A stretch of 64,000 bases of DNA. Source: Candidatus Gallimonas intestinigallinarum. Lineage in GTDB: Bacteria > Bacillota > Clostridia > Christensenellales > Borkfalkiaceae. The notes under the pieces are model-generated. The model ran no database searches and was not told the origin of the DNA. It saw only the letters and a list, made by a program, of their open reading frames with translations. The stretch covers positions 403 through 64,402 of the forward strand of contig CALVLM010000011.1 in NCBI GenBank assembly GCA_944338075.1, written 5' to 3'. Made by a program: the position numbers and the translations under genes. This document shows positions 1 to 4,478 of the stretch, one piece after another (positions within the stretch are counted from its first letter, which is position 1; each line of letters starts with the position of its first letter).

Positions 1-559
1 CGGGATAGGCAGGCATCTCCCAAGGATTATCCTCGGGGGATGTCTTTGTATATTTGAAGAAAATTTGGATCTTATCGTCGAACACGACGATTTTCTCGAT
101 CAAAGCGCGGATCAGCCGCCTTGGTGCCTGACGGAGCGGATCTGTCAGGTAGCTGATGACTTTGTCTTTTGTCAGGCGGTTTTGATGTTTGCACTGTTCT
201 ATGGCGATCTTGTCGTCGATCTCACTGCGCCGCTGTTCGAGTTCGTCCATGCGCGTCTTGGTCGTCTCATTGAAGATGCCTCGTTCGATCGCCTTCATGA
301 TGTTTGCAAGCGAGCGTGTCACTTCTTCCCTGTCGCGCTCTAAAAGCTGCAAGACGGATTGATCGCTCTTTCGTCTCTCATTGATGCGCATGATTTCATC
401 TGCAATCTTTTCAGTTGTCGCTTTGTCTCCAAAGAGTTGGCAGACGATGCCGATTACAAATTGCTCAACCTCGATTCCATGGTAAAAGACCCAAGTAACG
501 ATTTGCTTGGGTCTAAATTTTTTTGTGCCGTAATTTAAGTAAAAATTCTTTGATTTGTC
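1..559 (-). pseudogene. 3' fragment of a large serine recombinase gene. Only the C-terminal region is present. There is no start codon and no resolvase domain, and the 3' end runs off the left edge.
   Basis: Minus-strand translation reads YHGIEVEQFVIGIVCQLFGDKATTEKIADEIMRINERRK..ANIMKAIERGIFNETTKTRMDELEQRRSEIDDKIA..LIRALIEKIVVFDDKIQIFFKY. This is the coiled-coil/C-terminal pattern of large serine recombinases. The frame is closed upstream by TGA at 560-562 with no Met in between. Confidence 0.55.
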
Positions 560-886
560 TCAAATGACACTATAGGGAAAGATCTGAGGTATGGTTTTGA
601 AGAATTCATCCGAGAGGGACTTCAATTTTTGCAATAAGACAGAGACCTCTTTTACAGTGTAAGGTATAATAAAAAATTCTGTCAAAGAAATTTCAAGGGC
701 GTCACAAATCATACAAACCGTTTGTAATGTTGGCAGTCTGTGGTATTTGCGCGATTTATACAGTGTATCGACAGAAATATCGGCGGAGAGACAAAGCCGA
801 TACAATGACCAGTTTCGATTATTCAGAAAAAAATTTAATCGGTCAAAAAATGTTTCGCTTGTCCAGAAGCTGCAGTTATTTATCAT
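560..886 (-). CDS. XRE/Cro-C1 family helix-turn-helix transcriptional regulator
   Basis: 108-aa ORF with an HTH_3-like core (WSLYRLCLSADISVDTLYKSRKYHRLPTLQTVCMICDALEISLTEFF). It is divergent from the recombinase across an AT-rich intergenic region. Confidence 0.7.
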   Translation of the reverse strand: MINNCSFWTSETFFDRLNFFLNNRNWSLYRLCLSADISVDTLYKSRKYHRLPTLQTVCMICDALEISLTEFFIIPYTVKEVSVLLQKLKSLSDEFFKTIPQIFPYSVI

Positions 887-1002
887 TGTGACGCCTCCTA
901 AATTTTATCATGTGTAAGAAAAATATCTGATAAAAAGCATGCTTTTCAGTATAAATATATTATAGAACAGAATGGATATTATGATAAAATAACACATAGT
1001 GA

Positions 1003-2823
1003 ATGGACGATATCAGAGGCGATGTAAGGATGGATGAATATCGGGAGGCGGACAAAAATCAAACGGCAGAGTTGAATGCGTATTATATTCCGGCGAGAGC
1101 GAAAGAGGAAATTTACCAAAATACAAAAATTCGTGTATGCGCCTATTGCAGAGTATCCACGGACAGTGATGCACAGTCAACGTCATTTGTTTTGCAAAGA
1201 GAACATTATCAGAATTTAACGAATGCGCATCCTAATTGGATCCTGAAACATATTTATGCGGACGAGGGAATATCAGGGACGTCATTGAAAAGACGGGATG
1301 AATTTAATAAAATGATTGCTGCGTGCAGAGCGGGGGAATACGACCTAATCGTTACAAAATCGGTTTCGCGCTTTGCAAGGAATTTGGTCGATTGCATATC
1401 TTTGGCGAGAGAACTGAAAAATCAGAATCCTCGCGTCGGAATTTATTTTGAAACAGACGGTCTCAATACTCTGATGGAGGATTCCGAATTGAGACTTTCG
1501 ATCCTGGCTTCATTTGCGCAGGAAGAATCGGTCAAAAAGAGCGAAAGCATGGTCTGGTCTCTCAAAGAGCGTTTTAAGAATAAAAAGTTACTTACTCCAG
1601 AATTATATGGGTATCGTCGGCCGCGAGATGCCGGAGGGCATTTCATAAAAGGGGATGCTCTTGAAATAGATACGTCTGAGGCGGCGGTAGTGAAATTTAT
1701 ATACGATTCCTTTTTGGCGGGCAGTTCCACGGAAAATATTTCAGCGACGCTGACTGACTTGGGGATCCCGACAAAAATCGGAAACCCAAAATGGAGTGCG
1801 GGTTCTGTCAATTATATACTACGCAACGAAAGGTATTGCGGAAGTGTATTGACATGGAAAACATTTACCTACGATATTTTTGAACATAAAAAGCGGAAGA
1901 ACAAAAAAGACCGTGATCAGTATTTATATAAGGCACATCATCCTGCCATTGTGACGGTGGAACAATATGAGGCCGTTCAGACTCTTTTGGATGCAAAACA
2001 CAAAGGCATGAGGGGTGGACTGCATTATATGCATGTTGTCGATGAAGGCATATTTCGTGGATACGTTCCGATCGATCATCGATGGATCAATGATGATCCG
2101 GATATCTATTTTCAAGCGTCGGAGAGCGTGCAGGAGGACAAAAGAGAAAGATTGGTAAGGCGGTCCTGTTTCAGTCACTTTGATTTATCGGGATATCAGG
2201 TGGTGCGCGGTCAATACCTTACCGCAAGGTCGGAGCTTCCGGGGATGAGTATATTTGAAAACAGAATCGTATTTAACAGTTCGTGCGGGAACAAATTAAA
2301 AAATTTTTCTTATATACAACTTCTGTTGCATCCAACTGAACGAAAAATGGCGATCAGACCTTGCGGGCAAAACGATGTTTTTAGTATATATTGGAATACG
2401 AAGAAAGTTTCATTGAATAAAACGATATTTTGCCCCTATTTCGGGAAGGCCTTGTTTCGGATTATGGAGTGGGATCCGGAATTTCACTATAGAGTATTCG
2501 GAACGTGGATAAAAAAAGATGACGACTGTATCATGATATTCAATTTAACGGAATCAGTGCCCTTCATTTCTTATAAGGAAAACAGTTCAAATAAAAAGAG
2601 GGAAACGGCGGTATGCCCCGAAGGGTGGGACGATACGTTCGGAGAAGAGTTTTACCACTTCAGTCTTGAAAACAATTTATATTACAGCCGCGAAAAGGCC
2701 GGTTGGAACAGTCGGACCGAATGTAAATGTATTGAAGAACATCCTGCCGTTCGCATCATGTCCCCGATGGAGTTAAAGGAATGTGCGGCGGGATTAAAAC
2801 GGAAAACGGAGCAGCTCGAATGA
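1003..2823 (+). CDS. Atypical large serine recombinase: resolvase catalytic domain, recombinase domain and a non-canonical C-terminal domain
   Basis: Catalytic-Ser motif VCAYCRVSTDSD, then ADEGISGTS..DLIVTKSVSRFARN and a recombinase-domain-like YGYRR..NYILRNERYCG. No CxxC zinc ribbon or long coiled coil is visible after it. An alternative start is Met10 at 1030. Confidence 0.85.
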   Translation: MDDIRGDVRMDEYREADKNQTAELNAYYIPARAKEEIYQNTKIRVCAYCRVSTDSDAQSTSFVLQREHYQNLTNAHPNWILKHIYADEGISGTSLKRRDEFNKMIAACRAGEYDLIVTKSVSRFARNLVDCISLARELKNQNPRVGIYFETDGLNTLMEDSELRLSILASFAQEESVKKSESMVWSLKERFKNKKLLTPELYGYRRPRDAGGHFIKGDALEIDTSEAAVVKFIYDSFLAGSSTENISATLTDLGIPTKIGNPKWSAGSVNYILRNERYCGSVLTWKTFTYDIFEHKKRKNKKDRDQYLYKAHHPAIVTVEQYEAVQTLLDAKHKGMRGGLHYMHVVDEGIFRGYVPIDHRWINDDPDIYFQASESVQEDKRERLVRRSCFSHFDLSGYQVVRGQYLTARSELPGMSIFENRIVFNSSCGNKLKNFSYIQLLLHPTERKMAIRPCGQNDVFSIYWNTKKVSLNKTIFCPYFGKALFRIMEWDPEFHYRVFGTWIKKDDDCIMIFNLTESVPFISYKENSSNKKRETAVCPEGWDDTFGEEFYHFSLENNLYYSREKAGWNSRTECKCIEEHPAVRIMSPMELKECAAGLKRKTEQLE

Positions 2824-3413
2824 AGGAAGAATACTGCCGAATGATACCGGAAGAGGAAGAACAAGAGACGGTAAGTCTGGCCGGGTATCAGGTTGCAAAG
2901 GCTGAATTGTTTGCCCATACGCGTGAACCGGCAATAACCGTCTGGCAAAATAAAATCAAGTTCAATATGGCGTGCCTTCGCAGGTTCCCGGGCGTGAAGT
3001 ACATACAGCTTTTAATTCATCCGGAAGAACTACGGTTGATTGTGCGACCGTGCGAAGCAGATGCCCCCGACTCGCTGCGTTGGGCAAATGGAGGAGGGGA
3101 AAAGGAAATAAAAAACCGTGATATGATCTGCCAGATATTCGCTGCAAAACTATTCGATCTCATGTCCTGGCAGAAGGAATATCGCTATAAAATGCTTGGC
3201 AAGCCGGCAGTTTACAAAAATGAGGCGCTATATTTGTTTAAATTGACAGATTTTGAATTGTTTGTCAATAACGGAACAAAAAAACAGAGATCATGGCTGC
3301 CTGAAGATTGGCGCGAGTGTTTCGGCGTCCCGTTTGAACGGCACGATGATTCATACAAGATAAATTTAGCGGAAGGCTATATTACAACAAATAAAATGGG
3401 AGGATCGAGATGA
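2820..3413 (+). CDS. Hypothetical protein, paralog of the recombinase C-terminal domain (copy 2)
   Basis: ATGA overlap with the recombinase stop. GYQVAKAELF..ITVWQNKIKFN..YIQLLIHPEELRLIVRPC..YRYKMLG aligns with recombinase residues ~395-520. The track ORF 2781 is an upstream alternative-start extension. Confidence 0.7.
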   Translation: MKEEYCRMIPEEEEQETVSLAGYQVAKAELFAHTREPAITVWQNKIKFNMACLRRFPGVKYIQLLIHPEELRLIVRPCEADAPDSLRWANGGGEKEIKNRDMICQIFAAKLFDLMSWQKEYRYKMLGKPAVYKNEALYLFKLTDFELFVNNGTKKQRSWLPEDWRECFGVPFERHDDSYKINLAEGYITTNKMGGSR

Positions 3414-3838
3414 ACGACGCACTGATCAACGAAATTGATCTGGACGGATATCAGATTGTAAGAAGTCAGTACTTTCAAAAACAGTCTGAACCGGTAATAA
3501 CTCTATTTCAAACAGCGCTTGCTTTCGGGCAGGGCACGTTTCAGGCACTCAATAACTGCGAGGCGATCCAAGTGTTGCTCAATCATCGCGGCAGGAGTAT
3601 TGTGATACGTCCGGTATCATCCAATACGCCCGATGCAGTCATGTGGAAAAAGCGTGCGGAACCGAAGTATACGAAGATCGAATGCCCGCAGCTTACGCGC
3701 AACATTTATGAGCGGTGGGGATTGGATAAGAAATGTCATTATCGGGCTTTTGGTAAAACGGTGCAAGCGGATAAAAAAATACTGATATTATTTGATTTTA
3801 CCGATCCGGTCGTATATGAAGGATTGAAAAGGGTATAG
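3410..3838 (+). CDS. Hypothetical protein, same paralog family (copy 3)
   Basis: ATGA overlap with the preceding gene. Carries GYQIVRSQYF..ITLFQTALAFG..AIQVLLNHRGRSIVIRPV..HYRAFG. Confidence 0.7.
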   Translation: MNDALINEIDLDGYQIVRSQYFQKQSEPVITLFQTALAFGQGTFQALNNCEAIQVLLNHRGRSIVIRPVSSNTPDAVMWKKRAEPKYTKIECPQLTRNIYERWGLDKKCHYRAFGKTVQADKKILILFDFTDPVVYEGLKRV

Positions 3839-3841
3839 ACC

Positions 3842-4195
3842 ATGCCAAACGATACAGCGTATGTTTCATTTTATATGAGGAGCAATACCATACGGATTTT
3901 TAAGAATACAATACGAGCGATGGGGTCTCCTAAATTTATCAGATTACGTATCCACGATAGAGAGAAAACGATCATTATAGAGCCCTATGACAGAAGCACA
4001 TTTTCGTCGTTCCGAGTGCCTTTGCCGCTGAATGCGGCAAAGGAAGGATTGGATATTCACAGTAAGCTTTTTATCCGAATTGTTGCGAAGCGTATGCGGT
4101 GGGATATGGAACGGACATACCGGGTGTCCGGAGAATTATACGAAAGGCAGGGAATTGTAAAATTAGATCTGGTGCGAGCCGTAAAAATATCGTGA
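3842..4195 (+). CDS. Hypothetical protein, divergent member of the same paralog family (copy 4)
   Basis: Starts 3 nt after the previous stop. Carries IRIFKNTIRAM..FIRLRIHDREKTIIIEPY..TYRVSG. The last AT-rich gene before the GC-rich flank. Confidence 0.6.
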   Translation: MPNDTAYVSFYMRSNTIRIFKNTIRAMGSPKFIRLRIHDREKTIIIEPYDRSTFSSFRVPLPLNAAKEGLDIHSKLFIRIVAKRMRWDMERTYRVSGELYERQGIVKLDLVRAVKIS

Positions 4196-4357
4196 ATGCT
4201 TTCGATGTCAATCACTTCACGGTGCGTAGTGCTGCGGCACGCGTTAGCCCGCCCGGAAGGGCCTCGGGGAAAACGATCACGATTGGCGCGAAGCATTCTG
4301 CGCAGGGAGTGCAAGTATATTTTTTCAAAATTTTTCTCCCAAAGTGCGCAAAAACAG

Positions 4358-4403: not shown

Positions 4404-4478
4404 GGCCTTGTGGTCAAGCGGTTAAGACGGCGCCCTCTCACGGCGCAATCCCGGGTTCGATTCCCGGCAAGGTCACCA
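4404..4478 (+). tRNA. tRNA-Glu (anticodon CUC) with encoded CCA
   Basis: The cloverleaf can be read directly. Acceptor stem is GGCCTTG/CAAGGTC (one G-U pair). Anticodon stem is GCGCC/GGCGC with loop CTCTCAC, giving CTC at 4437-4439. T arm is CCGGG-TTCGATT-CCCGG, and the 3' end is CCA. The sequence closely resembles Firmicute tRNA-Glu. Confidence 0.9.

Follow-up and report, generated by a model that had tools for sequence, protein, structure and literature searches.

An operon conserved in islands and phages of gut bacteria suggests an undescribed form of site-specific recombination by several subunits

Large serine recombinases (LSRs) like phiC31, Bxb1, A118/LI and SPbeta SprA combine a Resolvase-type catalytic domain bearing an RVS(T) motif, a Recombinase domain behind it, and a zinc ribbon with an embedded coiled coil; this last part explains their site selectivity and one-way behaviour, and is also the part that genome engineers attempt to tune. 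For excision, LSRs need a recombination directionality factor (RDF), which normally acts through the coiled-coil motif (Rutherford 2013, PMC3783163; SPbeta cryo-EM, PMC11722253). In integrative and conjugative elements (ICEs) of streptococci and other Firmicutes, serine integrases have been described as triplets, in one orientation and near the element end; there, 10 of 42 serine integrases lacked the zinc-ribbon family PF13408, traG was among the targets, and "One or several CDSs" (coding sequences) sometimes lay between triplet and target gene (Ambroset et al. 2016, PMC4701971). Here, we analyse a locus at the start of a 64,000-nt stretch of DNA, referred to as the window, from Candidatus Gallimonas intestinigallinarum (GCA_944338075.1, contig CALVLM010000011.1, positions 403-64,402 of the forward strand). 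Its recombinase is like the canonical LSRs in its first two domains and in being carried by mobile genetic elements (MGEs), in islands and prophages. Where these have a zinc ribbon and embedded coiled coil, it has a new alpha+beta domain, together with three co-translated paralogs of that domain. The system is a widespread, unannotated variant of the LSR system. That dozens of islands and phages of gut bacteria have kept its operon suggests a form of site-specific recombination, so far undescribed, that involves several subunits.

A domain shared by a recombinase and three small proteins

The recombinase gene (1003..2823, forward strand, as are all genes of the operon) encodes a protein of 606 amino acids (aa) in which a catalytic domain (residues 46-194, 1138..1584; PF00239, E 3.9e-24) is followed by a Recombinase domain (residues 225-330, 1675..1992; PF07508, E 2.7e-23), a linker and a new C-terminal domain. 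Ser52 occupies the nucleophile position in the CRVST motif, and across 23 orthologs neither CAYCRVST nor TKSVSRFARN varies. The catalytic serine and the Recombinase domain are retained, just as an earlier note on this DNA had read them. The nearest solved structure to the catalytic domain is that of a C. difficile conjugative-transposon recombinase (3g13, E 4e-36). Sequence matches in the PDB were restricted to residues 41-327; similarly, the best NCBIfam match, CcrB, involves the N-terminal half only and the XisF model covers only the N-terminal 290 residues. Judged by these motifs, the recombinase appears catalytically competent.

At the site of the usual zinc-ribbon/coiled-coil domain, an alignment of the 23 orthologs revealed a highly conserved linker of ~60 aa (1993..2172) with the consensus ..VIDDGIFRGYVPINHHW.NDDP..YY.ASNSV... 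No Pfam match to Zn_ribbon_recom (PF13408) was obtained in the recombinase at E<=1, in searches identical to those in which the neighbouring canonical LSRs did match. No cysteine between residues 279 and 428 is conserved among the 23 full-length orthologs, which leaves the linker without a conserved cysteine, and with its ~60 aa the linker is too short to hold a coiled coil. In an AlphaFold 2 (AF2) model of residues 385-606, which is of low confidence in its tail, only short helices (9-17 residues) were seen, and no long helical hairpin or coiled coil. On these grounds the zinc ribbon and long coiled coil are absent, as the earlier note had maintained. Its remark that there is no Cys4 ribbon also stands, with the correction that the C-terminal domain carries four conserved, widely spaced cysteines: Cys454 and Cys477 in 23/23 orthologs and Cys428 and Cys538 in 22/23 (in residue order, codons at window positions 2284, 2362, 2431 and 2614). 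These lie far apart and do not form a CxxC...CxxC ribbon; c2, the first of the small proteins, retains three of them, c3 one and c4 none. They may make up a structural metal site found in the tethered copy alone.

Residues ~391-556 of the recombinase proved to be paralogous to the products of the three downstream open reading frames (ORFs). All four share a core of ~110-140 aa, which in the recombinase (copy 1, here recC) spans residues 391-530 (2173..2592). BLASTP linked recC to c2 (E 1e-28, 31% identity over 159 aa) and to c3 (2.5e-23), c2 to c3 (3e-17), and c4 to both recC (7e-5) and c2 (1.6e-5), and gave no match between c3 and c4. To avoid circularity, the assignment of c4 was retested by an independent profile-profile comparison, in which 18 c4 orthologs matched 18 recombinase C-domains with an hhalign probability of 98% (E 2e-13, 108 columns). 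The first free-standing copy, c2 (197 aa, 2820..3413), consists of an N-terminal segment, the core and a C-terminal extension; c3 (142 aa, 3410..3838) has the N-segment and core, and c4 (117 aa, 3842..4195) is the core alone, lacking the N-terminal "L.GYQVV" segment. The extension is common to the recombinase (CPEGWDDTFG) and c2 (LPEDWRECFG); in the former it bears the motif CPEGW..FGEEFY and, with a low-confidence tail and terminal helix, takes up 2593..2823. Since the extension is found only in recC and c2, and the N-segment is missing in c4, the copies form a nested series. The core domains are basic, with isoelectric points of 8.9-10.5, the highest being that of c4 (10.5). The genes are chained by ATGA overlaps between the recombinase and c2 and between c2 and c3, and c4 starts 3 nt past the TAG of c3. 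Both the paralogy and this arrangement, down to the exact junctions, are as the earlier note had described them.

All four copies are under purifying selection. Measured against L031, a relative at 82% identity, the ratio of nonsynonymous to synonymous substitution rates (dN/dS) was 0.059 for the N-terminal half of the recombinase and 0.10 for its C-terminal part, 0.058 for c2, 0.051 for c3 and 0.24 for c4, the fastest evolving of the set. The dS of c4 against L031 was 0.50, about half that of the other genes (~1.0), and a sliding identity plot of c4 against the relative showed no localised block of conserved DNA, at the 3' end or elsewhere. Across 24 loci, c2 shared 64-95% identity with its counterpart in the window; the corresponding ranges were 50-89% (recombinase N-half), 41-79% (recombinase C-domain), 34-91% (c3) and 31-84% (c4), which makes c2 the most conserved gene of the module, above the recombinase N-half. 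Orthologs cluster by position, with identities of 14-28% between groups and 31-95% within them. It follows from this grouping and from the identity ranges that the triplication is old and that c2 is the most constrained component. In all, 836 homologs of c2 were found, with no informative name among the 120 matches listed, and the exact c3 sequence is present on 256 contigs. Three metagenomic proteins are hybrids between paralogs: P0001 joins a recC core to a c2 tail, P0015 reads through from recC to c2, and P0017 has c2 followed by recC; this suggests either recombination between paralogous copies or misassembly.

At a cut-off of E<=1e-3, an exhaustive profile search for the domain among 1.84 billion representatives yielded 2,231 clusters (50% identity), and a cut-off of E<=1e-10 left 1,122. 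Some members are fused to recombinases of ~610 aa, with the domain beginning at ~390, and many are free-standing at 110-280 aa. The earlier note had not recognised the family, and our searches likewise gave no assignment: PHROGs and NCBIfam returned nothing above noise for the domain, a sequence-profile search of the PDB nothing meaningful, and PADLOC defence models matched none of the four proteins. In Pfam only DUF6128 (PF19623) came up, below threshold (c2, 18.7 bits, E 0.0018, against a gathering threshold of 27 bits); membership was rejected, as just 4 of 49 family members match it at E<=0.1 (best E 0.0016). None of the sources searched gives the domain proteins an informative name, and in the literature we found no paper mentioning DUF6128 and none describing the paralog series. 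By these comparisons the domain belongs to no described family.

AF2 predicted an alpha+beta topology of b-b-a-b-b, a loop, and then b-a-b-b-b, with a predicted local distance difference test (pLDDT) score of ~85-94 for the recC core, below 50 at construct residues 142-199, and a helix at 204-220; the model of c3 had a mean pLDDT of 86.7 and a predicted template modelling score of 0.75. Foldseek searches of the PDB and BFVD gave nothing below E 1e-3. For two independent models, PCNA/DnaN clamps headed the PDB matches with poor superposition (E 5e-3 to 2e-2, probability 0.25-0.44, TM score 0.14-0.19, root-mean-square deviation ~15 A), and in BFVD uncharacterised phage proteins came first, with clamps and processivity factors lower down and weak; over both databases E was 3e-3 to 2e-2, the best matches having 3e-3 to 5e-3. 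A sliding-clamp fold is thus recurrent among the matches, yet not at a significant level. A swapped-hairpin fold of the AbrB/MazE/SpoVT type, an idea taken from the b-b-a-b-b first half, found no support: hhalign gave 2.6% against seven AbrB/MazE-type sequences, and neither PF04014 nor PF02381 matched any of the 49 family members. The models therefore point to no reliable structural homolog of the domain.

Distribution, neighbouring genes and module boundaries

When one genome per species was scanned, 30 loci were returned, all from metagenome-assembled genomes (MAGs) or isolates of gut Clostridia, bar one MAG labelled Bacteroidaceae; the hosts include Christensenella, Anaerocaecibacter muris, Pumilibacter muris, Ruminococcus sp. 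JE7B6, Oscillospiraceae and Acetatifactor. All four copies were found in 24/30 loci in the same order, with a recombinase of ~610 aa followed by proteins of ~205, ~150 and ~125 aa. In the remaining six, five loci run off their contigs and one (L004) has only a weak fragment after the recombinase. IMG/VR added 32 loci, with the same order in 26/26 complete ones, and INPHARED 23 phage records, mostly of "Heliusvirales" gut phages, with a three-copy variant. The small ORFs are thus conserved, as the earlier note had required of them, both in their order and by their dN/dS of 0.05-0.24. In 25 loci the spacing at the three junctions is -23 to +17 nt, with the exception of a 1.76-kb insertion between c2 and c3 in L015 (9285-11045; 57-65% G+C, encoding a putative 435-aa membrane protein). 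L016, at 97% identity, has no such segment, so a chimeric MAG or an insertion of recent date may account for it. In the Agathobacter phage NatCom_6238 (L058, 4098-11800), there is just one further copy after the recombinase and c2. Behind it come an unknown protein of 338 aa, a DUF6551 protein and, encoded on the opposite strand, a pair of canonical LSRs; the endolysin gene is adjacent.

We then took a census of upstream genes in the 52 loci with sufficient upstream sequence. At least one canonical zinc-ribbon LSR lies nearby in 37 of these, and in 28 there are two in tandem, upstream and on the same strand; in 36/52, a gene for an AAA_25 ATPase (RepA/DnaB/KaiC-like) stands directly upstream of the recombinase that lacks the zinc ribbon, overlapping or abutting it. 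In most relatives of the L005-L090 series, such as L008 (1217-6837), two tandem canonical LSR genes, a divergent helix-turn-helix (HTH) gene and AAA_25 precede it. The earlier interpretation of this DNA, supported in part, is incomplete in that the module mostly comes third among clustered recombinases, with two canonical LSRs and AAA_25 upstream. With these genes present in most loci, the zinc-ribbon-less recombinase need not be the only integrase of its element, or an integrase at all.

Downstream of c4, many loci carry defence-like cargo (Metallophos, PIN_12, methylases, Abi), and about half of the related loci have short direct repeats or palindromes within ~100 nt of the c4 stop. Examples are TGCACCCCC, present three times at ~20-nt spacing, AATGCAAC, two to three times, and ATTGTGGGG, three times. 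Clusters were located at 12045-12095 in L015, 8862-8911 in L016, 10135-10185 in L018, 11468-11515 in L047, ~10060-10110 in L005, L008 and L010, 7423-7475 in L017 and ~9755-9790 in L031. The palindromes have arms of 10-12 bp, one showing a compensatory change between L018 and L047, and the repeat motifs are nearly confined to the post-c4 clusters in their loci. From their sequence and position, these clusters are possible binding sites.

In six proteins (P0040, P0041, P0042 from L057, P0044, P0077 and P0086), the C-terminal part of the Recombinase domain, the linker and the new domain are joined in frame to foreign N-termini: a type IV secretion coupling protein (TraG/VirD4), a topoisomerase, DUF6551 or unknown sequence. 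P0042 lies on a single 3.6-kb Logan contig. The TraG::recombinase ORFs could be assembly chimeras, or could stem from integration into traG with an attachment (att) site inside the recombinase gene; streptococcal ICEs whose single serine integrase targets rumA are reported to swap 3' gene parts reciprocally when they integrate. A further protein, P0107, has a zinc ribbon as well as the new domain. It was not trusted as proof that the two can coexist: its C-terminal part, in which the N-segment is missing, hardly differs from that of P0042, and P0107 may therefore itself be an assembly chimera.

In the window, the segment from ~487 to 4197 is best explained as a compact MGE-borne recombination module, composed of a divergent HTH regulator and the four-gene operon. 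Homology to relatives (74-82% identity) spans ~487-533 to 4197, ending 2 bases past the c4 stop codon. The right boundary (4196..4197) was placed from blastn end points, junction sequences and composition: G+C content is 42-43% in the first 4.2 kb versus 55-62% elsewhere in the window, and climbs at this point from ~0.43 to ~0.55 or more. At the left edge, a scan for terminators identified a terminator-like hairpin (487..514, forward strand), the point from which L031 and L032 can be aligned; by blastn, L031 is homologous from ~533 onwards. The Cro/CI-type HTH regulator (108 aa; 560..886, reverse strand) matches Pfam HTH_26 (E 3.6e-6); of the 100 ORFs in the upstream census, 10 are HTH_26 genes at the equivalent position, and sister elements have such a gene too. 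The module adjoins host DNA in other elements too (L003, L017, and L047, where feoB follows), lies at or near element ends in several cases, and is always found among MGE genes. A search for an empty site by way of the neighbouring peptidase gene gave none, as all contigs examined carry the module, and no circular junction was found for the window element, whose right boundary (about 4196/4197) is the sole end placed.

The first ORF of the window (1..391, reverse strand) is the C-terminal remnant of a canonical zinc-ribbon LSR, with 39% identity to residues 349-475 of the 498-aa LSR of L036 (BLASTP, E 3e-22); its length varies among strains from 150 to 267 aa. It adjoins a tmRNA (ssrA) gene immediately to the left of window position 1 (L035 6186-6572, ARAGORN), which suggests that an earlier element targeting ssrA has decayed at this place. 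A 12-nt sequence, ATTCTGCGCAGG, is common to the T-arm region/3' end of the tmRNA (L035 6554-6565) and to window 4295-4306 (E 0.05), where it falls within a terminator-like hairpin (4293-4312) ~100 nt to the right of c4; this match could be left from a former att duplication, or could be coincidental.

Further to the right, ARAGORN placed a tRNA-Glu(CTC) gene at 4404..4478 (forward strand). We rejected it as att site of the module: the module stops at 4197, and other MGEs have inserted exactly after 4478. Sister strains (L034, L036-L041) are at least 99% identical to the window exactly up to 4478 and then continue into differing elements. The 3' end of this tRNA gene is an insertion hotspot for at least four different unrelated MGEs, which have a zinc-ribbon LSR or tyrosine integrase of their own, Mob/Rep genes, and TIR, RyR, SNF2-SMC-Metallophos or RES cargo. 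These insertions are a phenomenon separate from the module. A 21-nt inverted repeat (1848-1868/4192-4212, 18/21 matching) was likewise considered as an internal recombination site and dismissed as being at chance level, with no additional recombinase-like remnant found in the flank. Its inner arm corresponds to recombinase codons 282-289, near the fusion point of the TraG::recombinase chimeras, and its outer arm lies at the right junction of the module.

How the small proteins may act

The mechanism that we propose starts from the old triplication behind c2, c3 and c4, a nested series along which the C-extension drops out first and the N-segment next. In the recombinase, a short linker and a basic alpha+beta domain occupy the site of the missing zinc ribbon and coiled coil. 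Translational coupling would keep c2-c4 at a constant ratio to the enzyme, whose C-domain they would join on the DNA as accessory subunits, via the shared fold, and together they would take over the missing tasks of recognising sites and controlling synapsis partners. In most relatives, this process would run beside the two canonical LSRs and the AAA_25 ATPase encoded just upstream. That c2-c4 are stoichiometric subunits which, jointly with the tethered C-domain, recognise sites or govern synapsis is, in our view, a tentative reading whose chances fall a little short of even. Obligate subunits of this kind are favoured because the coupling to the recombinase is tight in all 25 loci, and the slow evolution of c2, set against the faster recC, c3 and c4, fits a conserved hub with specificity-bearing partners. 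The basic cores, the invariant catalytic motifs, the position at or near element ends in several cases and the candidate binding sites after c4 in about half of the related loci also speak for this reading.

Several points weigh against this. Contacts among the proteins and with DNA, and with them a role in site choice or directionality, are what we infer, and as the domain has no reliable structural homolog, the fold itself gives no sign of DNA binding. The two canonical LSRs in most loci could be the real integrases. In many loci cargo follows c4, so that the module is not always terminal, and the window element has no repeat cluster after c4. The high conservation of c2 could equally reflect binding of a host factor. 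In a different explanation, the module is no integrase but some other DNA unit, serving replication or maintenance, multimer resolution, inversion or AAA-ATPase-assisted target choice, while the canonical LSRs integrate and the paralogs bind iteron-like repeats downstream of c4. The AAA_25 gene directly upstream in 36/52 loci, the two nearby canonical LSRs in 28/52 and the cargo after c4 agree with it, as do the repeat clusters right after c4, which recall iterons after a rep gene, and the phage L058, which has its two canonical LSRs elsewhere. We nevertheless consider it rather unlikely: in elements of the window, L031, L047 and L003 type, the module is intact and selected with no AAA_25 or intact canonical LSR within reach, and it ends exactly at the homology boundary and G+C shift, as an integrase module at an element end would.

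Less probable again is that the free copies are antagonists or decoys, which would compete for DNA sites or cap an oligomerisation surface and so keep recombination rare, in the manner of truncated transposase derivatives or of the Mu repressor/MuA N-domain pair. They are indeed paralogs of the recombinase's own domain, form a nested truncation series, have basic cores and are expressed from the same operon. One inhibitor would be enough, though, yet distant lineages have retained three distinct orthologous groups in an unchanging order, and this, with c2 more conserved than the enzyme, is more typical of structural subunits; moreover, obligatory co-translation of inhibitor and target provides no regulatory switch. 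The earlier note had suggested accessory or directionality factors; as the latter, one or more of the free copies would be classical RDFs that bind the recombinase and switch it between integration and excision. LSRs do require an RDF for excision, the enzyme here lacks the motif through which RDFs normally act, and small accessory genes downstream of an LSR have a precedent in XisF-XisH-XisI. But RDFs are normally expressed apart from their integrase, while c2-c4 lie within -23 to +17 nt in 25 loci; being coupled to the recombinase in every locus, they cannot by themselves define direction. As they also match no known RDF, XisH or XisI family, we find this part of the note poorly borne out and such a role very unlikely. 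Finally, one might take the small ORFs for functionless decaying duplicates or gene-calling artefacts, given that they are annotated nowhere and that c3-c4 similarity is below BLASTP detection. With dN/dS of 0.05-0.24, more than 50 loci having the same order and intact frames, 836 c2 homologs and a confident AF2 model of c3, this is effectively refuted.

A bolder form of the subunit reading, which we offer as speculation and think improbable, is that the four domains, often with AAA_25, form a hetero-oligomeric, possibly ring- or clamp-like DNA apparatus that selects sites and licenses synapsis. If true, serine integrases/transposases would include a multi-subunit machine whose organisation resembles that of Tn7/Mu more than that of any known serine recombinase, and which is widespread in the MGEs and phages of gut Clostridia. 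In any case, a large and abundant clade in the islands and phages of these bacteria does without the zinc ribbon and coiled coil, having instead an unknown domain and three paralogs of it. If the subunits set site choice or direction, they would represent a second, modular solution to the directionality problem, and could supply recombinases that owe their specificity to separable small proteins. Since current LSR mining rules demand that the att site be no more than 500 nt from the gene (PMC10083194), present mining would miss these systems.

Comparison with described systems

Going by their published description, the serine-integrase triplets of Firmicutes ICEs resemble the present loci, of which 28/52 have two canonical LSRs upstream of the zinc-ribbon-less one and among which TraG::recombinase ORFs occur. 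Neither a C-terminal domain nor paralogous small ORFs nor an AAA_25 gene is described in the paper, and the window differs in having one intact recombinase and a canonical LSR remnant on the other strand. In the literature on these triplets we found no functional work and no mention of paralogs; if the subunit reading is true, it would supply a concrete hypothesis for them.

Known RDFs are unrelated to their integrase and separately regulated, whereas c2-c4 are paralogous to the recombinase C-domain and coupled to it. In the fdxN element of Anabaena, the LSR XisF depends on small proteins, XisH and XisI, encoded immediately downstream. These are not paralogs of XisF, which is a canonical LSR, and have Pfam families of their own, to which c2-c4 had no match at E<=1. 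The CcrA/CcrB pair of SCCmec shares with our operon the side-by-side encoding of paralogous polypeptides; there, both are full recombinases, while here only the non-catalytic domain is paralogous.

Stand-alone copies of an enzyme's non-catalytic domain, encoded by the same element, are known from the Mu repressor and MuA, Tn5 Inh and IS1 InsA. These are single inhibitors of DDE transposases, in contrast to the three ancient, co-translated paralogs that accompany a serine recombinase here. In the Tn3/gamma-delta res, Sin and Hin/Fis systems, serine recombinases that have neither zinc ribbon nor coiled coil gain selectivity from extra DNA-bound subunits by the crossover site, an organisation with which the short repeat clusters beside c4, found in half of the loci, would agree. 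The accessory subunits of these small-resolvase synaptosomes are extra copies of the recombinase or host proteins, and not, as in the operon described here, dedicated single-domain paralogs.

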